DNA of 56,731 nucleotides from Patescibacteria group bacterium (GCA_038065695.1 JBBTQN010000020.1:1-56731), one strand, 5' to 3'. Counted from the first letter of the stretch, positions 1,409 through 45,772 are shown. Notes: a model not told the origin generated them from the letters alone. Program-made: numbers and translations.

Positions 1409-1487
1409 CAGAAATATTTATTCGTGCTATAATTAACAGAGTTAAAAATAACAGTTGGAATGGTTCTTTTCAGAAAGGAGAGAGGCG

Positions 1488-2036
1488 ATGAAGACGGAAA
1501 AATTGTCGTTGGCGTTGGTGATTATTATTCTGTTGATTTTGATGGTTCTGGGCACTTGTTGCGCGCACAACCCGAAGAATTTTTTGTCGATGAACAGCGG
1601 CGAATATCGCGCCTTCCTGTACTTCAAGGAGGTATATTTCGCCACCAAAGTCGGCAAAGCAGATTTAGAAAAGGAGGCGGATTGGCGCCAGGATTGGGCC
1701 AAGTCGCCGGAAGATTACGCGGCGTTTTTGAAAAACAAGCTGCCGTTTATGAATGTCGTGGAGCCGACCTCAAAAGACCTCAAGTTTTTAACGGAGCAGA
1801 GCGAGCTATTGGAACTCTTCTGGGAGTGGAGCAAAATCAATCCCCGCCATCTCACCGCCGACCAAAGAGATTTTTTTGAACATTTCCGGCAATGGGAAAA
1901 AGTCCGGACGATAGAGGAAGAAAAAGATGACCGGGAATTTATTAGCGCCTTTCCTTGGATTGATCCTGACCAACTCTCTATTCGGGACAAGGTATTTCTG
2001 TCTGAAGCCGGCTCAGCGATTGTCTATTCGATGTAA
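1488..2036 (+). CDS. Putative secreted protein or lipoprotein, paralog of 10493..11017
   Basis: Start moved to MKTEK, which has an AGGAGAG RBS. It has an N-terminal hydrophobic segment ending in GTCC. It shares the blocks RAFLYFKEVY and FPWIDPDQLSIRDKVFL with the other copy (RALAYFKSVY, MPWIRLDPKKWTNKDKVFL). Confidence 0.6.
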   Translation: MKTEKLSLALVIIILLILMVLGTCCAHNPKNFLSMNSGEYRAFLYFKEVYFATKVGKADLEKEADWRQDWAKSPEDYAAFLKNKLPFMNVVEPTSKDLKFLTEQSELLELFWEWSKINPRHLTADQRDFFEHFRQWEKVRTIEEEKDDREFISAFPWIDPDQLSIRDKVFLSEAGSAIVYSM

Positions 2037-3022: not shown

Positions 3023-3058
3023 AAAAAAAGCCATCCGAGCGGGAGCGGGGATGGCGTG
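3023..3058 (-). repeat. GCCATCC..GGATGGC hairpin family, copy 1 (orphan; no minus-strand gene upstream of it)
   Basis: aaaaaaagccatccgagcgggagcggggatggcgtg. This is the same module as at 7016, 7704, 12234 and 17010. Confidence 0.7.
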
Positions 3059-3088: not shown

Positions 3089-3117
3089 TTGACAAAATTA
3101 TCCATTTTTACTAAAAT
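3089..3117 (+). promoter_or_regulatory. Sigma70-like promoter for the radical SAM operon
   Basis: TTGACA, 17 nt spacer, TAAAAT. The -35 lies in a direct repeat atttgacaaa x2. Confidence 0.6.
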
Positions 3118-3186
3118 GTAACGTTAGCCAAAAAATCACGGTTATGTGGTATGATTTGGGTGAGTACATTGAAAAAGGAGGCCGCC

Positions 3187-4638
3187 ATGAGTGGCAATAT
3201 TCGCATTGGAAAAGGAATGGCGGCGTTTCAAAATACGGCCGTCAATCAGAAAGAGATTTTGGTTAAATCTTCTTTTGTCCAAGTCATTCAAAATAGAGAT
3301 CGGGCCGTAATTTGGCACTCGCTCTTTGGCAATCCCCAAATTGTCTCTAACGAAGTGGTTGAATTGTTTGATTTTTTCTCCAGGTCTAACTCGCTTAGCT
3401 CTCTTACTGATGAGTATGATATTAATGAAGACGGTCAGAGAGTGATTCGCGGTTTGATTGCCACTTGTTATCTTATCCCCGTTAATTTTGACGAAAGAGG
3501 AATTCTCTCGGCCAGAATGAAAGACAGGGAAGCGGAAGTCATCAGTGGATCGCAAGTTGATTATCTTGGATTGATCATGGCCGAAGTTTGTAACTTCGCT
3601 TGCGTTTATTGTATTCATTTCAGCAATCTCGGAACGTCAGATCGAGTCAACAGCCCCCAAAAAATCATGGCTTTTGAAACCGCCAAGGATGCCATTGATG
3701 GTTATTTGTCGATCTTGCGGCAACATGGCAAAAAAACGGCCAATATTAACTTTGGTGGTGGCGAACCGCTTCTTGCTTGGCTGATTATTGAGCGGTTGCT
3801 CCGTTACTGTCAGACAGAGTACGGTTCGGAATTCGAGTTCAAGTTTTCGATTAACACGAACGCCTCTTTAATCACTCCCGCAATCGCGAAAAGACTCAAG
3901 GAACATGGAGTGAAAGTATCCTCAAGCCTTGATGGCCTTCGCGAGGGAAATGATTTGGTTCGGCAAACACAGTCAGGCCGAGGGACCTTTGACGAGATTA
4001 CGCGCGGCTTTGATTGTCTCGCCGAACATGGTTACCCTTTGGACGGAATTGCGGTTACGATCAATGAGAGGAACTTGCCGTTTCTTAACGAGGCTATTAT
4101 TGACTGGGCTGCCGCGCATCACATGGGCGAAGTTCGAATCGACATTGACGTGGTCGGCATAATTGATATTTCAATTGACAAAATTGCCACCAGGTTGATG
4201 ATGGTAAAGCGACATGCCAAGAAATACGGAATTGAAATCGCTGGTTTTTGGTCTCGACCAGTGGAAAATCTGAATAATTCCGCGTTGATATCGCATGTTG
4301 CTTTTTGTGGCGGAGCTCGTGGCAACAGCTTATGTGTCAGTCCTGCTGGTGGCATTTACAGTTGCGGTTATAGCAACATTCAAATCGGCAGCTTGGATAA
4401 AATGGCATCGTTACACGAAGTTGGAGGGGAATATCACCATTTTGTCCTCGGCCACCTTACGGGCAATATAGAGATGTGCCGCGGTTGTGCTATCGAAGGT
4501 CAATGCAATGGTGGTTGCAATATCACCCATGAATTCGCTGGTGTCAATAAAACGGCAAAAGTTGAACGCATGTGTTCTTTTTATCGCAGAATGACAACGG
4601 AGCTTCTTCTTGAACAGCTTAAAGATGTAGGCAGTTAA
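3187..4638 (+). CDS. Radical SAM/SPASM-domain peptide-modifying enzyme with an N-terminal extension of about 100 aa
   Basis: CX3CX2C in MAEVCNFACVYC. The C-terminal SPASM pattern is CRGCAIEGQCNGGC (CX2CX5CX3C) with extra upstream Cys. Start moved to MSGNIR, which sits behind AAAGGAGG. Confidence 0.9.
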   Translation: MSGNIRIGKGMAAFQNTAVNQKEILVKSSFVQVIQNRDRAVIWHSLFGNPQIVSNEVVELFDFFSRSNSLSSLTDEYDINEDGQRVIRGLIATCYLIPVNFDERGILSARMKDREAEVISGSQVDYLGLIMAEVCNFACVYCIHFSNLGTSDRVNSPQKIMAFETAKDAIDGYLSILRQHGKKTANINFGGGEPLLAWLIIERLLRYCQTEYGSEFEFKFSINTNASLITPAIAKRLKEHGVKVSSSLDGLREGNDLVRQTQSGRGTFDEITRGFDCLAEHGYPLDGIAVTINERNLPFLNEAIIDWAAAHHMGEVRIDIDVVGIIDISIDKIATRLMMVKRHAKKYGIEIAGFWSRPVENLNNSALISHVAFCGGARGNSLCVSPAGGIYSCGYSNIQIGSLDKMASLHEVGGEYHHFVLGHLTGNIEMCRGCAIEGQCNGGCNITHEFAGVNKTAKVERMCSFYRRMTTELLLEQLKDVGS

Positions 4639-4677
4639 GTTGTTTCAGAAATTATTAAGTGAAAGGAGGTGAATGCG

Positions 4678-4773
4678 ATGAAGAAGCAGAAAAAGCAGTT
4701 GCGTCTCACAGCTGAGGCCTTGCCCAAACAAAAGGTGCTCTGCACCTGTCGTCAACCCAGCAATTGTCACTGA
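4678..4773 (+). CDS. Candidate RiPP precursor peptide (31 aa), not in the ORF track
   Basis: GGAGG lies 8 nt before the ATG. Translation: MKKQKKQLRLTAEALPKQKVLCTCRQPSNCH, then a stop. It lies directly 3' of the SPASM enzyme and directly 5' of a terminator. Confidence 0.6.
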   Translation: MKKQKKQLRLTAEALPKQKVLCTCRQPSNCH

Positions 4774-4787
4774 TAAACAGTGACACA

Positions 4788-4814
4788 CCCCAACTTTTTA
4801 GTTGGGGCTTTTTT
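4788..4814. terminator. Intrinsic terminator after the peptide gene
   Basis: Stem ccccaac/gttgggg, 6-nt loop, then cttttttat. It abuts the stop of the convergent MFS gene. Confidence 0.75.
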
Positions 4815-5997
4815 ATATGGTATTATTTTTTGGTCGATAAACATACAAAATAAATCCTACGCTAAGCGTGATTAGGCCTAAAAATATCAAGCTGTTTGTT
4901 ATGGGCAGTCGATCAATCAAGAGGCCAAAAATAGGAAAAAAAATAATTCCCGCCAGGCTGTCAAAAAAATTTTGAATTGACAGGACGGTAGCACGGGTAT
5001 CGGAAGAAATTCGTCGTTGGATGTAGTCCTTTAAAATCGGATATTGGAATCCTTTACTAAAATAATAAAAAATGAAAAAAAATAAGGTAATCGCCAATGT
5101 CGGGTATGACATTAAAAGAAAAGATATTCCTGGAATGAAAAAAATTAAAAAAAGCGCTGATTTTTCCCGCAAAAATGCTTCAATTTTGTGAGCGTACATT
5201 GAACAGACAGCTTGAAAAAATAAAATAATTGAAAATATATAGCCGATAAAAACAACATTAACGCCCTTAGCTATTAGGAGCGGCTGACTTAATAAGCTGG
5301 CAAAAATTCCCATCATTAGAGAAAGAAAAACAGTAAATATTATATACCATCGTATAATCGGGGCTTGGATGGAATTTTTTAAACCCAAAATAAGAATTGT
5401 AAGGTAATTATCATTTGATTTTTTATGGGGTTTATTTTTTGGTTCATGCATTAAAAAATAAGATAGAGCGGCGAAAAAAAGCAAGAGGCCGTCAATAAAG
5501 AAAGGCCATTTATAATTAATAGAAAAGAGATAAGCGCCAAAAGGTGCAGCGATAACTCCAGCAATTGAGAAAAAGGCATAACTTTTTCCTTCAATTTTAT
5601 TGTAAAGATTTGATTGATTATTTTCAATTAGTGAATCATATATGAGCGCCGTATCGGCGCCAGAGCGCAAAGCCGCCCCGATGCCAAAAATAATTTGCGC
5701 TAAAGCAAAAATAAGAAAAGAATTTCCTAGGCCGATTAAGACCGTGGCGATAGCGACTATTAATACGCCCATTGAAATAACGTATTTTCTGCCAATCCGA
5801 TCTGCCAAGGCGCCGGTGGGAATTTCCAATGCAAAAGAAGCGCATAAAAATATGGATTCCAAAAGTCCAATTTCAAAATAACTCAATCCTCGTGCCAGAT
5901 AATATAAAATGGTAATAGGAACAATAAACGAAGCGCCAGAAAATATATGCGCCACGTAGTATTTTATAGTGTTTGATTGAGTATTAGCAGAAGCCAT
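4813..5997 (-). CDS. MFS transporter
   Basis: About 12 hydrophobic segments and the MFS motif-A-like GALADRIGRK. The gene is visibly AT-rich. Confidence 0.85.
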   Translation of the reverse strand: MASANTQSNTIKYYVAHIFSGASFIVPITILYYLARGLSYFEIGLLESIFLCASFALEIPTGALADRIGRKYVISMGVLIVAIATVLIGLGNSFLIFALAQIIFGIGAALRSGADTALIYDSLIENNQSNLYNKIEGKSYAFFSIAGVIAAPFGAYLFSINYKWPFFIDGLLLFFAALSYFLMHEPKNKPHKKSNDNYLTILILGLKNSIQAPIIRWYIIFTVFLSLMMGIFASLLSQPLLIAKGVNVVFIGYIFSIILFFQAVCSMYAHKIEAFLREKSALFLIFFIPGISFLLMSYPTLAITLFFFIFYYFSKGFQYPILKDYIQRRISSDTRATVLSIQNFFDSLAGIIFFPIFGLLIDRLPITNSLIFLGLITLSVGFILYVYRPKNNTI

Positions 5998-6104
5998 AAA
6001 TATGATAATTACCTTTTATAATTACTTTTTTTATATTGACAAATGATTAAAATTATTATATCCTATCTTTTGGGATTTGTATATTAAAAACAAGGAGAAA
6101 ACAC

Positions 6105-6911
6105 ATGAATAGCGGTCGGATTTTTGCGGAAAGTTATGACTGGGAATATCGGAATAAAAAAGACGATTTAGAGTTTTACCAAAAGCTTGCCGGCAGATTG
6201 GGAGGGCCGATTCTTGAATGCGGTTGCGGTACTGGCCGAATAGCGTTGGCTATGGCGGAAAAGGGATCGCCAGTCGTTGGCGTGGATATTGATCCGTATT
6301 CCTTGCAAATAATGAAGAAAAAAATCAAGAAGATTAATCTTGGAAGTCGGTGTTCTGCAATTTGCGATGATATTACAAAATTGGACGCTAATGCCGCGCT
6401 TAGTCAAAGGATGTTTAAAATGATTTTATTTTCTTTTGACATTTTTTCGTATCTATTTCCATCTACGCGAGGATTATATTCCACAAAAGAAGATGTGCAA
6501 AAGGTCCAACGGTCTGTTCTGGAATGGAGCAAAAGACATTTAGATAAGAATGGAGTGGTTGTGATTGATGTTTTCGGATTAGGGGAGCATATTGAACCAT
6601 ATGTTCTTCGGCACCATTACACGATGACAGATAATCAGGCGGGGATTGTGAGGAGCTGTTTTTCTGCTTTCCAGCCCGATCAAGATCCTGACTTTTTCCA
6701 GCTCCATTTTTTTATAGAAGAAATAAAGAATGGAGCCATGAGGAAGTTTCACCGCATGTTGCGCGGATATCGGCAAGATATTATTGAACTGAAGAATCTC
6801 GCCGAGAGCGTCGGTTTAGAGATTACGGAGGTATATGATAATATAAGTTTCCGTCCATGCAAATTAAAACCGAATATTTATGGGGCAGTGATAATTTTTA
6901 AACTGCCATAG
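6105..6911 (+). CDS. Class I SAM-dependent methyltransferase
   Basis: Motif I ILECGCGTGRIALAMA followed by VVGVDIDP. Confidence 0.85.
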   Translation: MNSGRIFAESYDWEYRNKKDDLEFYQKLAGRLGGPILECGCGTGRIALAMAEKGSPVVGVDIDPYSLQIMKKKIKKINLGSRCSAICDDITKLDANAALSQRMFKMILFSFDIFSYLFPSTRGLYSTKEDVQKVQRSVLEWSKRHLDKNGVVVIDVFGLGEHIEPYVLRHHYTMTDNQAGIVRSCFSAFQPDQDPDFFQLHFFIEEIKNGAMRKFHRMLRGYRQDIIELKNLAESVGLEITEVYDNISFRPCKLKPNIYGAVIIFKLP

Positions 6912-7015
6912 AATGATTTTGAGCTAAAGAAAAGTTTTTATACTTTCTTTAGCTTTTTTTGTTGTTTATTATGGTCACTATTGGAAAAAGTAATTTTTTA
7001 AATAGATTGAATAGA

Positions 7016-7054
7016 AAAAGCCATCCGAGCGGAAGCTGGGATGGCTTGTTGGTA
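7016..7054 (-). terminator. GCCATCC..GGATGGC hairpin family, copy 2 (terminator of 7107..7637)
   Basis: aaaaagccatccgagcggaagctgggatggcttgttggt. Read on the minus strand, this is a hairpin followed by a T-run. Confidence 0.7.
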
Positions 7055-7106
7055 TTAAAAACTGAAACTTGACATTCAAATCCTGAAATCAATTTAAAAC
7101 CGTGCA

Positions 7107-7637
7107 TTAAATCAGGTTTTCCAACCCCAATTCAGACAGTTTATTTTTCATAAGTTCATTTATCCTTTTTTCATTTGTTTGGTGATCGTCCGTGTCTGAA
7201 TAAGAACCAAGAAGATGAGTTATCTCATGAACTAAAACATGTTGCCACCATTCGTCATTATTAATGTCTCTTATTCGCACATAAACAGATGAAATTTTTG
7301 GATTGTAGCTTCCTCCCGGGCCGAACGGTACCAAGATAATATTATATTTTTTCGGTTCTGTCACTTTCAATTCTGCCGCCATTGATGTGGCGAATTTACT
7401 TCCAATTTCTTCCCACCACTTTTTTATTTTTGGAATTAAGGGTTGGATTTCTGTCTTCCAATCAGTTTGATTAAAAAATCTTATGGCCGCTTCAGGGTAT
7501 GTTTCATTTTTATTTTTTTCCGGCATTATCGGTTTTAATCCCCATTTTGAAAAATTACCGTTTTCAAAGTTTTTTACGGTTAATTCCAAGTCGTTCAATA
7601 TCGGTTCCAGGGAAATTATAATTAATATGTCGGGCAT
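7107..7637 (-). CDS. Hypothetical cytoplasmic HExxH (zinc metallopeptidase-like) protein
   Basis: The only recognisable motif is VLVHEITHLLG. No signal peptide. Confidence 0.5.
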   Translation of the reverse strand: MPDILIIISLEPILNDLELTVKNFENGNFSKWGLKPIMPEKNKNETYPEAAIRFFNQTDWKTEIQPLIPKIKKWWEEIGSKFATSMAAELKVTEPKKYNIILVPFGPGGSYNPKISSVYVRIRDINNDEWWQHVLVHEITHLLGSYSDTDDHQTNEKRINELMKNKLSELGLENLI

Positions 7638-7703
7638 AGTTAACAGGTATGTTTATTTGAATCTAATTTACCACAGATTTATTTTTTTATTAAGCGGAAT
7701 TTA

Positions 7704-7744
7704 AAAAAAGCCATCCGAGCGGAAGTTGGGATGGCTTGTTGGTG
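7704..7744 (-). terminator. GCCATCC..GGATGGC hairpin family, copy 3 (downstream of the FadL-like gene)
   Basis: aaaaaaagccatccgagcggaagttgggatggcttgttggtg. Confidence 0.7.
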
Positions 7745-7747
7745 TTT

Positions 7748-7784
7748 CCCCTCCTTTATTCAAGGAGGGGATTAAGGGGAGGTC
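7748..7784. repeat. CCCCTCC/GGAGGGG hairpin (half element)
   Basis: cccctcctttattcaaggagggg followed by attaaggggaggtc. This is the same head as the composite elements at 27229, 31259, 41018 and 55184. Confidence 0.6.
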
Positions 7785-8980
7785 TAAAATTTCCACGAGG
7801 CAGAAATGGAGCCGGTGAAAATGTCCGCTTCGTATTTGCCGGGAGCTCGCTTGCCCCAGCCGGGTTTGACTTCTCGGTCGCCCCAGCCGTAGGTGGCGCC
7901 GAAGTTGAAAGAGAAATTTTCTTTTTCATATTTTGCGCCCAAAGCCGCGCCCCAGCCACTGGTATCGGGAGTGAGCTGGCTTACGGTCGTGTCCGGAATG
8001 GCTTTGGTCATATAGCCAGTACCGGCGTTGACCGTCCAATAATCGTTTAACCGATAGCGCGCTCCGAGATGGATGCTCGCGTCGTCCCGCCAATCAAGAT
8101 TTTGTTTTTTCTTGAGTGGCAGGTCGTGGAAGCGAAGCGTCATCTCATTCACAGTGTTGGAGTAGCCCCACCAGTTGGCGTCTATGGCCAAAGTGAGGCG
8201 GTCGGTCGCTTGCCAAGCGATGCCGGCGCCGATTCGCGGCGGAAATGTGAACTCGCTGTCAAAGCCATCGCCGAAATTAAGCACTGTTGGCCCGATTTTA
8301 GTGAAGCCGATAAAATTGATTTTTGACTCGCTCATATAGGTGAGTCCGAGCGTCAATTTTTCTGTTGGCCGATACATTACACCGACAATGCCGCCGATTC
8401 CCCAGCCGTTGGCTTCGCTATCGGTCATGAGCGGAGTGAATTTATTTAAGATATCGTAAGGGGTTTTGTATTTGAATTGGCCCCAGCCGATATTTATTCC
8501 CGCGCCGACGCATAGCTTGTCGTTCAATTTCAGCGAGAGAGCTGGCGTGACATTGACGAGCCCGATCATCCCCTCGCTTTCCACGATTCCCGCTTTTAGG
8601 TCGCGACTGAATTTTCCGCCGAGTCCGTAGGGAGAGGTGATGCCAATTCCCCAATTCGCCCAGTCGTTAATCGGCGCGACAAATCCGAGGAGCGGCATCA
8701 GGTAAAAGACGCCATCGTCGGATTTTTGCGAGCCGCCTTTGGTGGTGATTTTAAATTTAGGCAAGACCAAGTCAACGCCGAAATCCGCGTAAGCCGAATC
8801 AAACCGCGACATCCCCGCCGGGTTGTAGTAGAAGAGCGACGCGTCATCCGCGATGGCGTTGTAGGCACCGCACATTGAGCCGGCATTGGGACCGAGCGAA
8901 TTATCAATCCGATTAACCCCGCCAGCCGTTGCCGGCAGGCAAAAAGCGCCAGCGATTAAAATTGAAAGAACGGTTCTCAT
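7784..8980 (-). CDS. FadL/OmpP1/TodX-like outer-membrane beta-barrel transporter
   Basis: Signal peptide MRTVLSILIAGAFCLPATAGG. It has an NPAGM motif near the N-terminus, alternating beta-strand patterning, many Gly and aromatic residues, and a C-terminal ...SASWKF with terminal Phe. Confidence 0.7.
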   Translation of the reverse strand: MRTVLSILIAGAFCLPATAGGVNRIDNSLGPNAGSMCGAYNAIADDASLFYYNPAGMSRFDSAYADFGVDLVLPKFKITTKGGSQKSDDGVFYLMPLLGFVAPINDWANWGIGITSPYGLGGKFSRDLKAGIVESEGMIGLVNVTPALSLKLNDKLCVGAGINIGWGQFKYKTPYDILNKFTPLMTDSEANGWGIGGIVGVMYRPTEKLTLGLTYMSESKINFIGFTKIGPTVLNFGDGFDSEFTFPPRIGAGIAWQATDRLTLAIDANWWGYSNTVNEMTLRFHDLPLKKKQNLDWRDDASIHLGARYRLNDYWTVNAGTGYMTKAIPDTTVSQLTPDTSGWGAALGAKYEKENFSFNFGATYGWGDREVKPGWGKRAPGKYEADIFTGSISASWKF

Positions 8981-9039
8981 CTTTTTTCCTCCTTTTCCTC
9001 CTTTTTTTTGCCAAAAACCACTAATTTCAAGAACTTATT

Positions 9040-9068
9040 ATTTTAGAGTATTTTTGACAAAATGTCAA
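9040..9068 (-). promoter_or_regulatory. Sigma70-like promoter for the FadL-like gene
   Basis: Read on the minus strand: TTGACA, 17 nt spacer, TAAAAT. Confidence 0.55.
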
Positions 9069-9096
9069 TTGGCAAAATTTTTTAAATAATAATATT

Positions 9097-9117
9097 CCCC
9101 GCCCCCTTGGGGCGGGG
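9097..9117. other. Perfect 9-bp all-GC hairpin between divergent promoters
   Basis: ccccgcccc ctt ggggcgggg. Confidence 0.6.
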
Positions 9118-9184
9118 TAATTCATTGTGATTAAATTTAATAAGAATGGTATAATTAAAGAAATTAAAAATGAATTAACCTTTT

Positions 9185-10408
9185 ATGCCCAAAAGAAAGG
9201 CCATTGTCAGAATTAAAATTAAAAATAGAATTATTAGTGGTGTTTTTATTTCAGTTGCTATTATTATGGTGATTGTGGGTTTGAGTTTTTCCATTCCTTT
9301 ACTTTCAAATAAATTACCGGCCTCAATTTGTATCCCCGGTTTTGGTTGCTGGTCTTTTGAATTGCCGGTCCATTGCCTGTTTGGCCGGAATCCCAATTTT
9401 CTTTGGGGTGGTATGCTTGAATCGGTTTGGGGTCTTAATACAACCGATAGTCGCTGCCAAAAAAATTATTTTGAAGATTACGGCTATCATTATAACCCAG
9501 CCATTGAAAACTGTTCCTTACCGATACATACGGCTTGGTGCGGAAAAACTGATGAAGCCAAATACTATGATTGGCTTGGCTATTGCGTTTTGGCTTCAGT
9601 CCCTTATAACAACCCGCCTTGCTCCTGTCGCGACGGTACGATGGCAATGAGCGGCACCTTAAGTTCAATTGTCAGCGGTCGGGAAGGTTTTATCAGAACC
9701 ATAGGCCAAAAAACTTATGACAGCAGCTTTCCCGCTCAATTTCCTTTAATCACTGAAGAGGAGATTAAATTGTTTCAAGGCGTGATGAGCGGCTGTTTTT
9801 GCGGCCGCGGCCGAGGGACACTGCCCCAGCCCGGTTGGAAAAAAGATTTGACCCAGGACCCGTCCCAGGCGCAAATCGTATCTTCAGTAGTCTTGACCAG
9901 TAGCGGCGGTTCGGCCGGCTTTGTCAGAAATACCGTTCGCGGCCAGTATTATTTTATCAATAAAGCCGAAACGTTATTTGCCCTAATGGGAGGAAACATT
10001 GACCCGAAGTATCTTTCATATTCAGGAGAATGTACGCCATTACCTGCTGGCTGCCAGATAACGGATAGCTATACCACCGCCGGACATACCACCCCGGCTT
10101 CAGCTCATTATTTTGGCGCGGCTTTAGATATCAGTTGCGGTGAACCGGCGGTAGCTTCCGGAAACTGCACCGGTAAGACCCTTGAAGTTCTAAATAAAGT
10201 GATGAAGTATAATAATGGCTTTAATATTTTGCGCGAATGTAATCAAACTGAAAAGAGTTGTTGGAGTATTGGCGGAACAACCCAGATAATCCACATTGAT
10301 TTGAAAACCACCCGGGATGGTAGCCCGACTGATGGGAGACCCTGTTTGTTTACTGATTGCAATGCCAGGAATCCTGAAACCGATTGCGGTCCGGCCAATA
10401 CTCCGTAA
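9185..10408 (+). CDS. Membrane-anchored Cys-rich protein with a C-terminal LAS/M15-like zinc peptidase motif set
   Basis: N-terminal TM segment and about 20 Cys. The C-terminal ITDSYTTAGHTTPASAHYFGAALDIS and QIIHIDL resemble the SxHxxGxAxD ... H motifs of M15 D,D- or L,D-carboxypeptidase-like enzymes. Confidence 0.6.
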   Translation: MPKRKAIVRIKIKNRIISGVFISVAIIMVIVGLSFSIPLLSNKLPASICIPGFGCWSFELPVHCLFGRNPNFLWGGMLESVWGLNTTDSRCQKNYFEDYGYHYNPAIENCSLPIHTAWCGKTDEAKYYDWLGYCVLASVPYNNPPCSCRDGTMAMSGTLSSIVSGREGFIRTIGQKTYDSSFPAQFPLITEEEIKLFQGVMSGCFCGRGRGTLPQPGWKKDLTQDPSQAQIVSSVVLTSSGGSAGFVRNTVRGQYYFINKAETLFALMGGNIDPKYLSYSGECTPLPAGCQITDSYTTAGHTTPASAHYFGAALDISCGEPAVASGNCTGKTLEVLNKVMKYNNGFNILRECNQTEKSCWSIGGTTQIIHIDLKTTRDGSPTDGRPCLFTDCNARNPETDCGPANTP

Positions 10409-10440
10409 TATTAAATTTAAAGTTTTATCACAAAACGAAA

Positions 10441-10475
10441 ACGACCCAGATATCAGAGACACCGGGTCGTTTGTT
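10441..10475. terminator. Possible terminator hairpin between convergent genes
   Basis: Stem acgaccc/gggtcgt with a 16-nt loop and a weak T-tract. Confidence 0.4.
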
Positions 10476-10492
10476 ATTGAGGAGTAGAGTGA

Positions 10493-11017
10493 TTAGGGAC
10501 ACGCCTTTTGTCCCATGAGAAAGACCTTGTCTTTATTGGTCCATTTTTTTGGATCTAGCCGGATCCACGGCATATTTCCGAACAATTCTTTCTCATCTTG
10601 GGTCAGTTCTCTATTGCCCCATTGGCAGGCGGCTAAGTCTTTTTTCTGCCAGTCGGTCAAATTGTTCATATTAATCTGGCAATAAGCCCAGTAAGCCCAA
10701 AGCTGAGCCTCACCTTTGACCAAGAACTCGCAGTCCCGGATTGCTGACTTGTCTACGTTGACAAAGCGGAATTTTTCGCCAACAAACTTTCTGAAGTCTG
10801 CTGACATTGCTTCGACTTGGACTCGCAGAGCTTGTTTATCATTCAACGTTGTTGAAGGTATCCGACTAGCTTCTAGGACTTCAAACGCCTGATAGACGCT
10901 TTTGAAGTAGGCAAGGGCCCGGGTCTCGGTGGGGTCGACGGCGTAATGAGATCTCGCACAGCCGTAAATGGCCGTGCACGCCGTGAAGGCAATAAATACC
11001 ATCACAATCCTTTTCAT
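10493..11017 (-). CDS. Putative lipoprotein, paralog of 1488..2036
   Basis: Signal peptide with a lipobox-like AIYGC. Conserved blocks shared with 1488..2036 are listed under that feature. Confidence 0.6.
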   Translation of the reverse strand: MKRIVMVFIAFTACTAIYGCARSHYAVDPTETRALAYFKSVYQAFEVLEASRIPSTTLNDKQALRVQVEAMSADFRKFVGEKFRFVNVDKSAIRDCEFLVKGEAQLWAYWAYCQINMNNLTDWQKKDLAACQWGNRELTQDEKELFGNMPWIRLDPKKWTNKDKVFLMGQKACP

Positions 11018-11139
11018 TGCTAATCTCCTCTAAATATCGCTCTAAATCCTAGCCACAACAGGCAACTAGGACTTTTGAGACAGTAAAATGAACATATTAT
11101 GATTATATCATATATATATAATTTTGTCAAATTTTAACC

Positions 11140-12235
11140 CAAGTTCAATGATCAAGTGCAACACTTCGTGTATAATAGCATTTCAACTATTAAACATGGA
11201 GTTATATGGGAAAACAATATAAACAGTTGGATTTAAAAGAAAGAGAGCAACTTCATCTATTAATTTGGGACAAGCTATCGATTAGGCAAATAGCTAAAAT
11301 AATGGGTAGAAGCCCCTCGACAATCAGTCGAGAAATTGAGAGGAATACTCCACCCCTGGTCAGACGTTACACGCCCCATTTAGCCCAAGAAGCATACCAT
11401 GAACGCAAAGTGAAAGTCAGACAAAGGCCTCGTCTCAAAGATCCTTTGATTGTCGCTTACTTGATTGAGAAATTGAAACTGGATTGGTCGCCCGAGTTGA
11501 TTGCCGGCAAGTGGAGCAAGGATCATCCTAATCTGCCCATTAGCCATGAAGCGATTTACCAATACATCCACGCTTCAGCCAATCCGGGCGATGAGAATGA
11601 TTTGAGACCGTATCTTAGACGAAAACACAAGAGAAGAAAAAGAAAATATATACCTTTTAAAACCGTGAGAACCACGATTCCCGAGCGAATTGGCATCGAA
11701 ATGAGGCCACTGGCCGTGGCAGACAGAAGACAATATGGCCACTGGGAAGGCGACTCCGTAGAGTCCAGGCGAGAACAGAAAACTTGTTTAAGGACTTTAG
11801 TCGAAAGAAAATCAAGATATTTATGCGCAGTTAAAATTGAACGCAAGACAGCCGAATTAGCTTCGCAAGCGACGATTGATTTATTGGGTCGATATCCAAA
11901 ATCGATGCGACGCACCTTAACTCAAGATAATGGCACAGAGAATGCCAGCCACAAAATTATTACTCAAACCATCGACACCAAATGTTATTTTGCCAATCCA
12001 TACCGTTCCTATGAACGAGGCACTAATGAACAAACCAATGGATTAATCAGGCAGTATTTTCCAAAAGGAACTGATTTCAAACAAGCTTCAATCAAAGACA
12101 TTAGAGAGGCGGAAAGAAGGCTTAACGGCCGGCCAAGAAAAGTATTAGATTTTTACACCCCATCTGAAAAGTTTTATGAACTAATCACTAACCAAAATTT
12201 AGCGTTAGAAACTTGAATCCAGCATTTTATGATTA
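11140..12235 (+). mobile_element. IS30-family insertion sequence; the ends are not confidently defined
   Basis: Contains the IS30 transposase gene. I could align only weak terminal inverted similarity (left ..tgatcaagtgc.., right ..aaacttgaatc..). Confidence 0.45.
11206..12216 (+). CDS. IS30 family transposase
   Basis: N-terminal HTH (LSIRQIAKIMGRSPSTISREIERN). DDE region with HWEGDSV ... LTQDNGTENASH ... YERGTNEQTNGLIRQYFPKG. Confidence 0.9.
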   Translation: MGKQYKQLDLKEREQLHLLIWDKLSIRQIAKIMGRSPSTISREIERNTPPLVRRYTPHLAQEAYHERKVKVRQRPRLKDPLIVAYLIEKLKLDWSPELIAGKWSKDHPNLPISHEAIYQYIHASANPGDENDLRPYLRRKHKRRKRKYIPFKTVRTTIPERIGIEMRPLAVADRRQYGHWEGDSVESRREQKTCLRTLVERKSRYLCAVKIERKTAELASQATIDLLGRYPKSMRRTLTQDNGTENASHKIITQTIDTKCYFANPYRSYERGTNEQTNGLIRQYFPKGTDFKQASIKDIREAERRLNGRPRKVLDFYTPSEKFYELITNQNLALET

Positions 12236-12269
12236 AAAAAGCCATCCGAGTGGGAGCTGAGATGGCGTG
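12234..12269 (-). terminator. GCCATCC..GGATGGC hairpin family, copy 4 (terminator of the GNAT gene)
   Basis: aaaaaaagccatccgagtgggagctgagatggcgtg. Confidence 0.65.
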
Positions 12270-12277
12270 CCCTTAAA

Positions 12278-12787
12278 CTATTTTATTTCCAGAACCATTT
12301 TCAAAGTTTTTGGCAGGTTTCTATTTTCTGGGTATTTTTTTATTACTAATTTTTTAAATCCGGATTTTTTATAGCTTCGAATAGCTCTTGCGTTATCCGG
12401 CCTGACTTCAAAATAAATTTTAGTAATACCAAGCACTGTCGCTTTCTTAATAACCGATTGGATGGCTTTCGTGCCGTAGCCCTTGCCCCAGTATTTTTTT
12501 TCGCCGATAATGATTTGGGTTTCAAACCAGCTGTTTTTTCTTTTCGCCAAAGAAATGTGGCCTATCATTTTTTTATTTAAAGCTATAATGAAATGATGGT
12601 CGTTTTTATTTCCAAGCATTGCTAAAAAATATTTTTTCACTTCTTGGTCGGACAACCGTTTAAAGACCCCGCTCGTCAATTTAAGTAGCTCTTTATTCCT
12701 CCACCATTGAGAAAAATATTTTTCGTCCGAGGTTTTAAGTTTTCTTAGAGATATTTTAGGCATAGATTTATAAGTAAATAGTAGCAT
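12278..12787 (-). CDS. GNAT family N-acetyltransferase (RimJ/RimL-like)
   Basis: Acetyl-CoA-binding-like segment WGKGYGTKAIQSVIKKA, then RPDNARAIRSYKKSGFKK. Confidence 0.85.
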   Translation of the reverse strand: MLLFTYKSMPKISLRKLKTSDEKYFSQWWRNKELLKLTSGVFKRLSDQEVKKYFLAMLGNKNDHHFIIALNKKMIGHISLAKRKNSWFETQIIIGEKKYWGKGYGTKAIQSVIKKATVLGITKIYFEVRPDNARAIRSYKKSGFKKLVIKKYPENRNLPKTLKMVLEIK

Positions 12788-17009: not shown

Positions 17010-17043
17010 AAAAGCCATCCGAGCGGGAGCCGGGATGGCGTGG
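17010..17043 (-). terminator. GCCATCC..GGATGGC hairpin family, copy 5 (terminator of 17101..17706)
   Basis: aaaagccatccgagcgggagccgggatggcgtgg, followed by the hairpin cccctccttgttttaaggaggg at 17050..17071. Confidence 0.7.
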
Positions 17044-32771: not shown

Positions 32772-35700
32772 ATGGATAAGTCAAATCTTATCATCAACAA
32801 GGAAAAAGAAATTCAAAAATTTTGGGAAGAGAATAAAATTTTTGAAAAGACGCTTGAGGCCACCAAAAGCGGCAAAGCTTTTAGTTTTTACGATGGTCCG
32901 CCATTCGCGACCGGCACGCCTCACTATGGACATTTGGTCGCGAGTATCATGAAAGATGTCGTCCCGAGGTACCAGACGATGAAAGGACGCTATGTAGAGC
33001 GCCGCTGGGGCTGGGATTGCCACGGACTCCCGATAGAAAATATCGTAGAAAAAGAATTAGGATTTAAAAGCAAGAAGGATATTGAGGATTTTGGCGTGGA
33101 AAAATTCAACGCCCAGTGCCGATCAAAAGTTTTGATTTATGTGGAAGAATGGAAAAAAACCATTCATCGCTTGGGGCGCTTCGTGGACATGGAAAATGAT
33201 TACAAAACGATGGATTTGGATTTTATGGAAAGCGTTTGGTGGGTGTTTAAACAGCTTTGGGATAAGGGTTTGATTTATGAAGGATACAAATCCATGCACA
33301 TCTGTCCGCGTTGCGAGACGACTTTATCGCAATCAGAGGTGAGTGAGGGCTACCGCGACATCAAGGATTTATCTCTCACGGCAAAATTTGAGCTCGTGGA
33401 CGAGCCCGGCACTTTTATCCTAGCTTGGACGACCACGCCTTGGACGCTTCCCGGCAATGTGGCCTTGGCGGTGGGAGAGAAAATTGATTATGTGATGATT
33501 AAAAAAAAGAATTTGGAAAAAGGCGAAGAAAAAGAAAATTTTATTTTAGCCAAGGAAAAATTTTCCGTTTTACAAGATGATTATGAAATTATAAAGGAAT
33601 TTAAGGGCGAAGAATTGATTGGCAAAAAATACCAGCCGCTTTTTCCATACTATAAAGATAAAGATTTAAAAAATAAAGAAAATTTATATTTGGTGGTCAG
33701 CGCGGATTTCGTGACGACCGAAGACGGCACGGGCGTGGTCCACATCGCGCCGGCTTATGGCGAGGAAGATTTGATGCTGGGCAAAAAAAAAGATTTGGCC
33801 TTCATCCAAAATGTCACTTTAAGCGGTCATTTCACCAATGAAGTGGAGGATTTCAAAGGCCTCCACGTGAAGCCGGCCGGACACACCAAAGAAACCGACA
33901 AAAAAATCATCAAATATTTGAAAGATAATGATTTGCTTTTTGACGAACAGGAATACGAACACAGTTATCCGCATTGCTGGCGGTGCGACACGCCGCTCAT
34001 TAATTACGCGACTTCGTCTTGGTTTGTGAACGTGACGAAAATAAAAGATAAAGCGATAAAATTCGCCAAAGATATTAATTGGTCGCCGGCGCATATCAAA
34101 GAGGGCCGTTTCGGCAAATGGCTGGAGGGCAGCCGCGACTGGTCCATCTCCCGCCAGAGATTTTGGGCTTCAGTCATCCCGATTTGGCGCTGCGAGTGCG
34201 GCGAGAAAAAAGTCATCGGCTCCATTGCCGAATTGGAAAAAGAAAAAATAACCAAAAATAATTTTTTTCTCATCCGCCACGCCGAGTCGGAAAAGAACAT
34301 CCTTGGCATTTTTGATGGCAAGAAAGACAGCGCGTATTCCTTGACGGAGAAGGGCCGAAAACAAGCGGAAGAAGCGGCTAAAAAACTGAAAAAATTAAAG
34401 ATTGATTTGATTATTTCCTCCGAACTCCGGCGCGCCAAAGAAACGGCGGAGATTATCGCGGGAGAATTGGGTTTGGAAGCGCAGTTTGATCCTCGCTTAA
34501 ACGAAGTGTATTTGGGAAAGCGGGAAGGAAAGCCGTATTTAGACGAAGACGGAAAAAGTTTCACCCAAAAATGGAAAATGGAATATGATAAAAGGCTGGA
34601 AGAGGGTGAGAGTGTAAAAGATGTGGAAGAAAGAATGTTGTCCGCTTGGCAAGAACTGGATGAGAAATACGCCGGCAAAAACATTTTATTAGTTTCGCAC
34701 GGTGACACTTTGCGCGCTTTAAAAGGCGTTTTATTAGGACTAAAAAACGGCGAGATTTTCAGCCGCGAGAAAGTATTGGATTTTTGTGAAATTGAAGAAT
34801 TAAAAGAAAAAGTTTTTGACCTTCACAAAGATTTCATTGATAAGATTGAAATTAAATGTCCGAAGTGCGGCCAGTCAATGAAAAGAATCCCCGATGTGAT
34901 TGATTGTTGGTTTGAATCCGGCTCAATGCCTTACGCCCAGCTTCATTATCCGTTTGAGAATAAAGAAAAATTCGAGCATAATTTCCCCGCCGAGTTCATC
35001 GCCGAAGGCGTGGACCAGACGCGGGCTTGGTTTTACTATCTCCATCTCATCGCGACGGCGATAAAAAATAGCCGCGCTTTTGCCAATGTGATCGCCAACG
35101 GCATTGTTCTGGCCGAAGACGGCAGGAAGATGGCGAAAAAACTGAAAAATTATCCGGAGCCGGATTTGGTGATGGAAAAATATGGCGCCGACGCTTTGCG
35201 GTATTATCTTTTATCTTCGCCGGTGATGGCCGCGGAAAATCTTAATTTCTCCGAGTCGGGCGTCAAAGAAGCGTTTCAGAATGTGGTGATGCTCATGGGT
35301 AATATTTTGAAGTTTTATAAGATGTACGAAGATAAATTACAAATTCAAAATTACAAATTACAAATAAATTTAAAATTCAAAATTCAAAATTCAAAATTTA
35401 ATGTTGATAATGTTTTAGACCTTTGGCTTGTCGCCAAGCTGAATTCGCTCATCAAAGAAACGACCAAAGCGATGGAGGCCTATGATTTGCCGCGGGCGAC
35501 CAGGCCGATTGCCGGATTTATCAATGAATTTTCCACTTGGTGGCTTCGCCGCAGCCGCGACCGATTTAAAAACGAGGGCGCGGATAAAGATAATGCCTTG
35601 GCCGTTTTCCGCTACGCGCTTCTCTCGCTTTCAAAAGTGATGGCGCCGTTTATGCCATTTATCGCCGAGCATGTTTATCGTGAAATTGACGGAGAGCTTG

Positions 35701-36248
35701 AATCTGTCCATTTGGAATCGTGGCCCAAAGCGGAAAAGATAGATGAAGATGTTTTAAAACAGATGGAAGAAGTGAGAAAAATCGTGGAGCTGGGACTGGC
35801 CAAGCGCGCCGAGGCGGGGATCAAGATCCGACAGCCACTCGCTACGCTCAAAATTCCAAATTCAAAATTCCAAATTCCAAATAACCAGGAAGAATTTATT
35901 TCTCTTATTAAAGATGAGCTCAACATTAAGGAGATTATCTTCTCTAAAGAAATTGAAGAAATTGAATTAGATTTGAATTTAACCGAAGAATTGAAGGTGG
36001 AAGGCGTGCTTCGCGAATTGGCGCGCTCCATCAACGATTTAAGGAAGAAGCAGGGGTTGACCGTGGGCGATAAAGTGAAAATCCATTGGCACAGCGACGG
36101 CGAACTGATTAAAAAAGTTTTTGCCGACCAGAAATTAGTTGAAGAGTTAAAACGCGCGACTATCGCCGAGGAATTTACCCAACAAAAAAACGATGGCAAG
36201 GAGATCGGGGTGAATGGCGAGAAAATAATTTTATTATTGACAAAATAG
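32772..36248 (+). CDS. ileS: Isoleucine--tRNA ligase (type 2) with an inserted histidine-phosphatase domain and low-complexity inserts
   Basis: HYGH, KMAKKL (KMSKS), WSISRQRFW, WRCECGEKK and CPKCGQSMKR zinc knuckles. The insert carries RHAESEKN ... SSELRRAKETA ... LVSHGDTLRAL. Confidence 0.95.
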   Translation: MDKSNLIINKEKEIQKFWEENKIFEKTLEATKSGKAFSFYDGPPFATGTPHYGHLVASIMKDVVPRYQTMKGRYVERRWGWDCHGLPIENIVEKELGFKSKKDIEDFGVEKFNAQCRSKVLIYVEEWKKTIHRLGRFVDMENDYKTMDLDFMESVWWVFKQLWDKGLIYEGYKSMHICPRCETTLSQSEVSEGYRDIKDLSLTAKFELVDEPGTFILAWTTTPWTLPGNVALAVGEKIDYVMIKKKNLEKGEEKENFILAKEKFSVLQDDYEIIKEFKGEELIGKKYQPLFPYYKDKDLKNKENLYLVVSADFVTTEDGTGVVHIAPAYGEEDLMLGKKKDLAFIQNVTLSGHFTNEVEDFKGLHVKPAGHTKETDKKIIKYLKDNDLLFDEQEYEHSYPHCWRCDTPLINYATSSWFVNVTKIKDKAIKFAKDINWSPAHIKEGRFGKWLEGSRDWSISRQRFWASVIPIWRCECGEKKVIGSIAELEKEKITKNNFFLIRHAESEKNILGIFDGKKDSAYSLTEKGRKQAEEAAKKLKKLKIDLIISSELRRAKETAEIIAGELGLEAQFDPRLNEVYLGKREGKPYLDEDGKSFTQKWKMEYDKRLEEGESVKDVEERMLSAWQELDEKYAGKNILLVSHGDTLRALKGVLLGLKNGEIFSREKVLDFCEIEELKEKVFDLHKDFIDKIEIKCPKCGQSMKRIPDVIDCWFESGSMPYAQLHYPFENKEKFEHNFPAEFIAEGVDQTRAWFYYLHLIATAIKNSRAFANVIANGIVLAEDGRKMAKKLKNYPEPDLVMEKYGADALRYYLLSSPVMAAENLNFSESGVKEAFQNVVMLMGNILKFYKMYEDKLQIQNYKLQINLKFKIQNSKFNVDNVLDLWLVAKLNSLIKETTKAMEAYDLPRATRPIAGFINEFSTWWLRRSRDRFKNEGADKDNALAVFRYALLSLSKVMAPFMPFIAEHVYREIDGELESVHLESWPKAEKIDEDVLKQMEEVRKIVELGLAKRAEAGIKIRQPLATLKIPNSKFQIPNNQEEFISLIKDELNIKEIIFSKEIEEIELDLNLTEELKVEGVLRELARSINDLRKKQGLTVGDKVKIHWHSDGELIKKVFADQKLVEELKRATIAEEFTQQKNDGKEIGVNGEKIILLLTK

Positions 36249-45156: not shown

Positions 45157-45772
45157 GAAAGTTCTCCTTCTTTTGGTTTTTTGCTTGCCTCGCCATAGCC
45201 CTTGGGCGAAGGCGGGTCGGTTTTGTAAGGGAATGGTAGCATATTTCACAAAAGCATAAAAGCATAAAAACACTCTCTTGTTTTAATGTTTTTTGTATTT
45301 TAATAAAATGAGAGTCGCATTTGGGTATATTAAATCAACTTAGATTAACAAAACAACTCACAAAATTAATTCTGTGTTTTTGTGACGGTGTGGATAACCT
45401 ATGGATAATAAATAATTAAAAACAAGAAATAGTCGTAAATAGAGGAATAATTTTTTAAAAAAATATCTAAATTTAGCCAAAATATAATTAAATTTGACAA
45501 CCAAAATATTTTTTTCCGCCAGCTGGCGGATTACGGTTGACTTTTCAACAGGGTTTGTGTTAATATTGGATTATCTGGTTTTTAGCGGTATTTTTCAAAA
45601 AAAATTACCAAAATCCCGCTATAGAAATCATTGGGTTAATAACCTCAATTGATAGTGGGTAAACGAAAAAATCAAAACTCAAATTAGAATAAACTCATTT
45701 CTTTTTCTCGGCTTTGCCGCCTGACCTAAGGCCCAACTAAGCGGGGAAATCAGAAAGAATGAGGGTTTTTTT

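Follow-up and report, generated by a model that had tools for sequence, protein, structure and literature searches.

A short open reading frame (ORF) for a Cys-rich peptide, directly behind the gene for a radical S-adenosylmethionine (SAM) enzyme, marks a small biosynthetic cassette in a 56,731-nt stretch of Patescibacteria DNA (GCA_038065695.1, JBBTQN010000020.1; hereafter the window), which comes from a Hainich groundwater metagenome-assembled genome. The enzyme is a peptide maturase with radical SAM and SPASM regions and a predicted RiPP recognition element (RRE). The small ORF almost certainly encodes its substrate, and the pair is inseparable across more than 120 loci. On balance, we think it probable that these genes belong to a compact operon for a ribosomally made and post-translationally modified peptide (RiPP), of an undescribed family widespread in the Candidate Phyla Radiation (CPR), in which the RRE binds the leader, a thioether is formed, and the gene in a third slot serves in self-protection or export. 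The cassette as a whole probably makes a small, cross-linked, bioactive peptide.

The peptide gene in the window

The maturase and peptide genes are predicted to form one transcription unit, with a promoter at 3089 and a terminator at 4788. Positions are counted from the first nucleotide of the window.

3089..3117, plus strand: promoter-like TTGACA-17-TAAAAT 5' of the enzyme gene (11/12 consensus match; a consensus match only)
3187..4638, plus strand: peptide maturase with RRE, radical SAM and SPASM domains, 483 aa
4665-4669, plus strand: Shine-Dalgarno sequence GGAGG of the peptide gene, with an 8-nt spacer to the ATG
4678..4773, plus strand: precursor peptide gene, 31 aa, ATG at 4678 and TGA at 4771-4773; product MKKQKKQLRLTAEALPKQKVLCTCRQPSNCH
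4744..4770, plus strand: conserved core T-C-R-Q-P-S-N-C-H within the peptide
4788..4817, plus strand: intrinsic terminator 3' of the peptide gene, an 8-bp G+C-rich hairpin (4788-4807) followed by a T-run

The original prediction had singled out this ORF as an unannotated gene with a GGAGG eight nucleotides upstream, a clean terminator behind it and three Cys among its last ten residues, and our analysis agrees on each count. The translation is confirmed, the ribosome-binding site and the three Cys are in place, and the ORF is absent from the public gene calls for the contig, which do list the enzyme and its neighbors. The terminator hairpin folds better than 200 of 200 shuffled sequences (z = -3.17). 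The peptide gene starts 39 nt after the maturase gene; the GAAAGGAGGTGA context around its Shine-Dalgarno sequence is kept in related loci, where it often overlaps the 3' end of the enzyme gene. The TTGACAAAAT promoter-like motif is also present 5' of further genes nearby. The peptide has no match among the Pfam and NCBIfam models, in line with the earlier impression that its core resembles no described family.

Conservation of the enzyme-peptide pair

We fetched 60 loci from species-representative genomes and 80 from metagenomes. In all 55 genome loci that include the 3' end of the enzyme gene and downstream DNA, an ORF of 24-38 aa ending in C-x3-S-N-C-(H/K/G/R) lies beside the enzyme; the five remaining genome loci, which have no peptide, are truncated contigs or carry an enzyme fragment. 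The ORF typically begins 5-60 nt past the enzyme stop codon; its ribosome-binding site, GAAAGGAGG, in many loci overlaps the last part of the enzyme gene. The metagenome loci agree: wherever the downstream DNA is readable, in 69 of 69 cases, a peptide lies beside the enzyme. Among these, 66 peptides fit the standard pattern and three are variants: one with PTNC (L103), one with Tyr replacing the first core Cys (L143), and one with the core SCEHYGPPCDQ (L138). Conservation next to orthologous enzymes, on which the original prediction turned, is thus borne out in both sets, with one divergent core and one core lacking a Cys.

The divergent locus, L138 (about 5100-5230), combines that core with a recognizable ALPKRRKF leader and a sister enzyme that is about 53% identical and has GSW in place of the GFW motif described below. 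This combination of leader and core suggests that the wider enzyme clade serves other Cys-x6-Cys cores. The pair also survives rearrangement; it is kept where the gene order is permuted to peptide, nucleotidyltransferase (NTase), enzyme (L105/L106) and where the peptide is encoded on the opposite strand (L005/L073).

Within the peptide, conservation is concentrated at the C-terminus. Of 56 peptides selected by motif, all have C(-6), S(-2), N(-1) and C(0), while T(-7) is found in 54 and P(-3) in 52. The codons at these invariant residues are mixed: TGC or TGT for the first core Cys (32 and 24), AGC, AGT or TCT for Ser (44, 11 and 1), AAC or AAT for Asn (44 and 12), and TGC or TGT for the second core Cys (47 and 9). 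Invariant residues encoded by synonymous codons show that selection works on the protein sequence, and the comparison therefore identifies the small ORF as a real gene, a conserved partner of the enzyme under protein-level purifying selection, and not a chance ORF. The leader is basic, with a conserved (V/I)-K-x-L-P-K-x-K-V-L motif. The core is single and non-repetitive and has no Asp or Glu, the peptides carry two or three Cys, and their last residue, like any C-terminal extension, differs between loci (H, K, G, R, AKS, RKS, HKS).

Two further candidates were set aside. A recurrent second small ORF (MSWVLCCSG...) about 200 nt downstream is read, by its position and sequence, as the +1 frame of a conserved NTase N-terminus. 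An apparent fusion of enzyme and peptide in L038 has a stop codon ahead of the peptide ORF.

The maturase belongs to a distinct GFW clade

The enzyme probably starts at the ATG at 3187, which is preceded by AGGAGG at 3177-3182, rather than at 3151; the resulting 483 aa agree with database entry P0001. Both Cys motifs named in the original prediction, the CX3CX2C of the radical SAM core and the CX2CX5CX3C of a SPASM domain, are present.

3256..3462, plus strand: N-terminal RRE-like domain, from profile alignment to TigE and an AlphaFold2 (AF2) model
3589..3612, plus strand: CX3CX2C radical SAM cluster motif CNFACVYC, invariant in a 25-sequence alignment and in 120/120 homologs
4243..4251, plus strand: GFW motif, aligned with G338-Y339-W340 of TigE, the GYW position of cyclopropyl synthases
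4306..4575, plus strand: SPASM-type auxiliary-cluster region with eight conserved Cys, C-x8-C-x9-C ... CX2CX5CX3C (CRGCAIEGQCNGGC) ... C

Membership in the radical SAM superfamily is clear, with a PF04055 match of 61.5 bits against a cut-off of 29.5. A Pfam scan of the enzyme at E<=0.01 reported PF04055 alone and not the SPASM model; the SPASM assignment comes from the motif, the eight conserved Cys and the alignment of this region to the SPASM domain of TigE. The N-terminal extension that had been proposed as a possible recognition domain comprises about 130 residues before the radical SAM core, and alignment to TigE makes it RRE-like. The N-terminal positions of the family profile align to TigE from residue 7, across the crystallographic RRE (residues 3-85; PMC10878394). 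In the AF2 model, four short strands are followed by three helices at residues 36-104 (495-aa frame) with pLDDT of about 70-88; because the mean pLDDT of the enzyme model is a moderate 63, we used it for domain topology only. With this predicted N-terminal domain and the precursor peptide gene next door, the enzyme has the make-up of an RRE-type RiPP maturase.

No named family claims the enzyme. The strongest NCBIfam matches are peptide maturases (including the nif11-type) and the anaerobic sulfatase-maturating enzyme anSME, and every score lies far under its cut-off: 116 bits against 340 for the PapB family of ranthipeptide maturases (NF047865, model positions 3-322 of 330), 88.5 against 425 for the SCIFF maturase (TIGR03974), 77.5 against 720 for the sactipeptide maturase model RumMC, and 97 against 349 for anSME (TIGR03942). 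These scores place it outside all four families. Sactipeptides are defined by thioethers from Cys to an alpha carbon, and ranthipeptides in the broad sense by a bond from Cys sulfur to the beta or gamma carbon of another residue. A search with a 25-member profile matched TigE (PDB 8VPO) over its full length (E 1.4e-48), then CteB and anSME, and Foldseek with the AF2 model ranked TigE (E 8e-23), CteB, ChlB, anSME and SuiB. The worry that the enzyme might cluster with sulfatase maturases is thus allayed; its nearest relatives are peptide maturases (TigE, CteB and the PapB type).

TigE and TvgB are cyclopropyl synthases, in which a strictly conserved GYW supplies a Tyr ligand to the first auxiliary cluster (Aux I), the core motifs of the substrate contain repeated Val/Ile, and the Y339F variant of TigE is inactive (PMC10878394). 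The cassette enzyme differs on these points, with GFW in place of GYW in 117 of 120 homologs and a single core without repeats. More than 120 homologs are 55-61% identical to the window enzyme, nearly all of them labeled Patescibacteria/CPR, and enzymes from different CPR classes are 50-60% identical to each other. An exhaustive hidden Markov model (HMM) search returned 374 representative clusters at E<=1e-30; the best-scoring are mostly GFW and grade into GTW, GSW, GMW and GYW. The family is thus a distinct GFW clade inside a wider G-x-W group to which the cyclopropyl synthases also belong.

Two resistance-type enzymes alternate in a third slot

Clustering of the flanking ORFs in the 60 genome loci yielded only two further recurrent families, each commonly the next gene after the peptide: a Pol-beta NTase of about 238 aa in 33 loci and a GNAT acetyltransferase of about 160 aa in 21. 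This usual third gene, which is tightly linked to the peptide gene and runs in the same direction, was missing from the accessory set of the original prediction. Across 96 distinct enzyme sequences, 42 are accompanied by the NTase and 39 by the GNAT, with at least 20 switches between them on a rough neighbor-joining tree. Two near-identical cassettes, L001 and L002, differ in the third gene alone and have equal cores. Moreover, C-terminal NTase remnants (from residue 116-141 to the end at 238-239) lie directly after the GNAT gene in four loci, which shows that one third-slot gene displaced the other.

L078, 8796-9116: NTase remnant
L032, 1997-2317: NTase remnant
L085, 2302-2598: NTase remnant
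L094, 5963-6334: NTase remnant, overlapping the end of the GNAT gene

The nearest solved relatives of the GNAT are the AAC(6') aminoglycoside acetyltransferases and SpeG; the nearest named models for the NTase are Lnu, ANT and MntA, all with sub-threshold scores.

The accessory genes in the window are listed here.

4813..5997, minus strand: convergent transporter of the major facilitator superfamily (MFS; PF07690), nearest NCBIfam matches drug-efflux pumps, below cut-off
6105..6911, plus strand: class I SAM methyltransferase (MTase), an occasional accessory gene with weak association
12278..12763, minus strand: cassette-type GNAT acetyltransferase (PF13302 and PF00583), 7.5 kb from the peptide gene

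The window GNAT is 46-66% identical to the post-peptide GNATs of 21 genome loci (the next gene in 19). It matches 58 loci at 45% identity or more; other GNATs in flanking DNA reach at most 36%.

The MFS transporter, which the original prediction counted among the accessory partners, proves to be one in a minority sub-lineage. Viewed from the enzyme, this transporter is found in 1 of 140 loci. A search centered on the transporter itself gave a tight subfamily of 12 clusters at 45-62% identity, followed by a sharp fall to 33% or less. The four closest homologs (62, 54, 53 and 51%) all adjoin the enzyme and a PSNC-type peptide, convergently in L166, L167 and L081/L169 and directly after the peptide and co-directional in L168; homologs at 47-49% identity are not beside the cassette. 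That the closest homologs all flank the cassette argues that the MFS transporter is a genuine partner in this sub-lineage, with a probable role in export or self-protection. The window cassette is an MFS variant with a methyltransferase and a GNAT.

Tailoring by a methyltransferase, another part of the original accessory set, is weakly supported. The type found in the window lies near the cassette in three other loci only (L022, L149 and L081/L169). A different, 212-aa class I MTase separates peptide from GNAT in six distinct loci, which correspond to seven records since two are identical; the GNAT follows it in all of them except L022.

L018, 1915-2553: 212-aa MTase directly 3' of the peptide gene (identical to L094)
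L094, 4843-5478: 212-aa MTase (identical to L018)
L078, 7626-8258: 212-aa MTase
L088, 1804-2439: 212-aa MTase
L077, 6949-7584: 212-aa MTase
L021, 4443-5077: 212-aa MTase
L022, 7604-8233: 212-aa MTase

The proposal that a cytoplasmic HExxH protein (7107..7637) is the leader peptidase did not stand. Among the 60 genome loci it recurs in one related genome only (L037/L108), a single other organism, and in the window it lies inside a block that appears to be inserted. In hhalign, it showed no relation to another HExxH family found near some cassettes. This separate family, of about 190-260 aa with an invariant HExxHF motif and a PRFL motif, has members no more than 7 kb from the cassette in 7 of the 60 genome loci. 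Their distance and strand vary, and the family could be an occasional peptidase partner or a coincidence.

L003, 689-1393: HExxHF family
L005, 5127-5909: HExxHF family
L029, 2055-2786: HExxHF family
L031, 9061-9762: HExxHF family
L040, 9239-9937: HExxHF family
L045, 3505-4074: HExxHF family
L059, 3842-4471: HExxHF family

An apparent insertion separates the GNAT from the window cassette

The overlapping loci L081 and L169 give the joint order enzyme (+), peptide (+), MFS (-), MTase fragment (+), GNAT (-). The window has the same order except for about 5.2 kb between the MTase and the GNAT. This interval holds an interrupting block that is apparently an insertion that split the cassette and separated the GNAT from it.

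7057..12232, no strand: interrupting block with the HExxH protein, a FadL-type porin, two proteins without assigned function and an IS30-like transposase
7784-8980, minus strand: FadL/TodX-type outer-membrane beta-barrel gene (PF03349, E 6e-46)
11206-12216, plus strand: IS30-like transposase (HTH_38 and rve), directly adjoining the displaced GNAT
3026-3055, 7016-7045, 7706-7735, 12237-12266 and 17010-17039: copies of a hairpin element

The comparison with L081/L169 favors insertion over inversion for the displaced GNAT. An inversion flanked by inverted repeats was considered and rejected, as no convincing inverted repeats were found and the candidates are promoter-like TTGACAAAAT motifs. The block is flanked by 45-nt hairpin copies at 7016-7045 and 12237-12266. 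The hairpin element as a whole, AAAAGCCATCC-N12-GGATGGC (30-45 nt), has five copies in one orientation, with 0 expected by chance. Four of them directly follow minus-strand genes at their 3' ends, as a shared terminator would; at 3026 there is no such gene, and that copy lies just 5' of the maturase promoter.

The FadL-type gene has 53% G+C, compared with 44% for the window, and its arrangement is also present in the independent assemblies L067 and L068. To our knowledge, Patescibacteria are not generally thought to possess an outer membrane. Around the cassette we also noted two paralogous putative lipoproteins without a family match, at 1455-2036 (+) and 10493-11017 (-), with 27% identity (E 9e-16) and a common PWI...DKVFL end; one lies 5' of the cassette and the other inside the inserted block. 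Two Cys-rich proteins, at 2101-2973 and 9185-10408, have a hydrophobic N-terminal segment and no Pfam match.

The cassette is spread across the Candidate Phyla Radiation

Several aminoacyl-tRNA synthetases are encoded in the window, as are rpoB and rpoC. Compared with Patescibacteria sequences, Buchananbacteria among them, its rpoB shows 82-85% identity, which places the window in a Patescibacteria genome and the cassette in its usual phylum. The labeled hosts of the other loci are Azam-, Ryan-, Magasanik-, Portnoy-, Brenner-, Uhr-, Peregrini-, Berkel- and Saccharibacteria, the last including Nanosynbacter, Nanosyncoccus and rumen lineages. A few cassette contigs are binned as Omnitrophica, Acidobacteriaceae or Anaerolineales, and some bin labels, such as 'Gammaproteobacteria', are doubtful. 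The L037/L108 genome is 83% identical to the window in rpoB, yet its enzyme is only 53% identical. This discordance between the enzyme tree and rpoB relatedness suggests horizontal spread, and the distribution of the cassette looks patchy.

No family members were found on viral contigs, and PADLOC gave only generic matches, to a radical SAM core (viperin) and to minimal NTases, with no match to a defense system. A reading of the cassette as a defense system or toxin-antitoxin pair was rejected on these grounds.

Elsewhere in the window, a class I aminoacyl-tRNA synthetase of 1158 aa (32772-36248, +) contains a complete histidine-phosphatase domain (PF00300, residues 499-664, E 6e-44) between the tRNA-synt_1 catalytic match and the anticodon-binding domain. 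Just 5' of rpoB there is a second radical SAM gene, an unrelated one that includes a B12-binding domain (43456-45273, -, 605 aa).

Proposed mechanism and alternative explanations

In the mechanism that we propose, the N-terminal RRE domain would bind the leader motif of the peptide. The radical SAM cluster would cleave SAM, and the 5'-deoxyadenosyl radical would abstract a hydrogen from a residue of the core. One or both of the invariant Cys could then be linked to a nearby Ser, Asn or Thr as a thioether ring, with a change of -2 Da per link, and the two auxiliary clusters, apparently fully ligated by the eight Cys, may accept an electron. The gene in the third slot would protect the producer from, or export, a bioactive and probably toxic product. 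The thioether is our leading guess for the chemistry, from the spacing of residues in the core: C-x3-S and C-x4-N resemble the spacings of PapB and CteB, whose substrates PapA and CteA have C-x3-D and C-x4-T, respectively. The GNAT, NTase and MFS families are unrelated and share mainly a use in resistance to small antibiotics, which argues for self-protection or export of a bioactive product.

Several observations weigh against this account. The nearest characterized enzyme, TigE, forms C-C bonds and not thioethers; the PapB and SCIFF scores are far below cut-off; and, with eight conserved Cys in the SPASM region, Aux I seems to offer no free position to a substrate thiolate, in contrast to CteB. 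There is no conserved protease, and most loci have no exporter. The GNAT and NTase could be tailoring enzymes instead of immunity proteins, and the count of switches between them comes from the rough tree. The insertion proposed for the window depends on one collinear locus, L081/L169, and the GNAT there shares only 25-31% identity with the cassette type. Finally, antibiotics rarely have a core that is near-invariant over entire classes, a trait typical of cofactor-type RiPPs.

Given the position of TigE as the nearest characterized relative by both sequence and fold, the same operon and substrate might support another chemistry, a possibility that we take seriously but think rather unlikely: a C-C or C-O cross-link, cyclopropanation, epimerization, or an anSME-like oxidation of Ser or Cys to an aldehyde. 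The family lies within the broader G-x-W clade that includes GYW enzymes, the eight Cys imply auxiliary clusters with all ligands in place, as in anSME and SuiB, a Ser or Thr is kept at -2 (the sole substitution seen is Ser to Thr, in L103), and C-x-x-P-S loosely resembles the C-x-P-x-R of sulfatases. However, thioether substrates are classically marked by a pair of invariant Cys at fixed spacing, and the Pro is one residue off the sulfatase motif spacing. Cyclopropanation in particular would have to proceed without the repeated Val/Ile motif and with the GYW Tyr replaced by Phe in 117 of 120 enzymes, the change that inactivates TigE (Y339F; PMC10878394). We regard it as improbable that the peptide is processed into an intracellular cofactor, metallophore or redox molecule, comparable to pyrroloquinoline quinone (PQQ) or mycofactocin, with the GNAT or NTase acting in its biosynthesis. 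Such a role would fit a core that is near-invariant over very distant CPR classes while the leader drifts, enzymes that are 50-60% identical across these classes, the general lack of an exporter or protease, and a C-terminal Cys, Cys and His that could bind metal. It fits poorly with the patchy-looking distribution and the discordance with rpoB, with a third slot held by two chemically different enzymes or a drug-type pump, which is hard to reconcile with a fixed biosynthetic step, with the lack of any co-located cofactor-dependent enzyme, and with the variable last residue and C-terminal extension, unlike in mycofactocin.

The role of the third slot allows another reading, which we consider doubtful, in which the GNAT and NTase are alternative tailoring enzymes that acetylate or nucleotidylate the peptide to give two product variants and the MFS protein is a mere exporter. 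GNATs are known to modify several RiPPs, for example by N-acetylation in microviridins and goadsporin; the third gene is co-directional with the peptide gene and tightly linked to it, and methyltransferases are at times inserted into the same slot. But the cores are alike whichever enzyme is present (L001 and L002), the 20 or more swaps and the displacement remnants suggest functional equivalence and not product diversification, and both enzymes have their nearest relatives among enzymes of small-molecule resistance. As for the small ORF being a chance ORF, a translated attenuator or an RNA element, with the true substrate encoded elsewhere as for anSME, we give this almost no credence, even though every public gene call missed the ORF and the anSME model gave a sub-threshold match of 97 bits. 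Co-occurrence is 100%, including loci with rearranged strand and order; invariant residues show synonymous codon variation behind a strong Shine-Dalgarno sequence; the enzyme has an RRE domain and scores far under the anSME cut-off of 349; and no sulfatase lies in the neighborhood. Conservation has effectively refuted this explanation.

We return, then, to a compact RiPP operon with a self-protection or export gene as the preferred reading. A bolder version of it is tentative and less likely than not: the product may be a structurally fixed effector used throughout the CPR, made by a new radical SAM reaction on C-x3-S-N-C other than simple ranthipeptide thioether formation, and directed against hosts or rival symbionts or acting as a signal, with the GNAT, NTase and MFS proteins conferring self-resistance. 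If true, the Candidate Phyla Radiation would have its first natural-product system that is both specific to it and widely conserved.

Significance and comparison with known systems

CPR bacteria, or Patescibacteria, make up a large share of bacterial diversity; these ultra-small episymbionts are considered to have few biosynthetic gene clusters. The cassette, tiny and simple to synthesize, is present in hundreds of CPR contigs, from groundwater and from Saccharibacteria of the mouth and rumen, with a precursor gene that is invisible to gene callers, and an HMM of the peptide would recover the whole missing gene family for annotation. A bioactive product would be a candidate mediator of interactions between symbiont and host or between symbionts, which are otherwise hard to study; some Saccharibacteria can be co-cultured with their hosts. 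In the literature on the core motif, on radical SAM RiPPs of CPR bacteria and Saccharibacteria, and on relatives of TvgB and TigE, we found no description of this family.

The cyclopropyl synthases TvgB and TigE share with the cassette enzyme the build of RRE, radical SAM barrel and SPASM domain and the G-x-W position next to Aux I. The cassette enzyme differs in having GFW for the defining GYW, at about 19% identity in structural alignment; its extra conserved Cys (C-x8-C-x9-C) could replace the Tyr as ligand, and its substrate has a single Cys-containing C-terminal core instead of a repeated Val/Ile motif. PapB is the best NCBIfam match and CteB (PDB 5WGG) the second structural neighbor, and these systems too pair a short peptide and an RRE-bound leader with a Cys donor 4-5 residues from a polar acceptor. 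In contrast to theirs, the cassette core contains neither Asp nor Glu and is unlike a six-Cys SCIFF peptide, and the SPASM region has eight Cys rather than seven. anSME (PDB 4K37) has the same radical SAM and SPASM fold, with fully Cys-ligated auxiliary clusters, and acts on Cys or Ser in a short Pro-containing motif, but it has no RRE or dedicated adjacent peptide, the motif spacing is unlike that of the cassette core, and no sulfatase lies near the cassette.

Two further systems resemble the cassette in its layout. In the microcin C locus, mccABCDEF, the MFS pump MccC and a GNAT, the C-terminal domain of MccE, give self-protection. A tiny ribosomal peptide with one maturase, together with the MFS and GNAT families, is common to both systems, but the microcin C maturase is a ThiF-like adenylyltransferase, its product is a peptidyl-nucleotide, and the cassette shows no sign of a Trojan-horse strategy. 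The PQQ and mycofactocin systems (PqqA/PqqE and MftA/MftC) likewise have a very short precursor with a variable N-terminus and a conserved C-terminal motif, an RRE-dependent SPASM enzyme, and a core conserved over wide phylogenetic distances. The cassette differs from them in having no dedicated peptidase or downstream redox enzymes, a variable C-terminal residue, a distribution that looks patchy and departs from the rpoB tree, and accessory genes of resistance type.

The cassette is thus a known kind of system, a radical SAM/SPASM RiPP. What appears to be new is the family itself, with its near-invariant core across the CPR, its clade of GFW enzymes, and a minimal three-gene layout with an interchangeable resistance-type gene. 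Its enzymes are natural Tyr-to-Phe sisters of the cyclopropyl synthases and have a substrate that contains Cys, which makes the clade a good place to look for a new thioether topology or a new chemistry.

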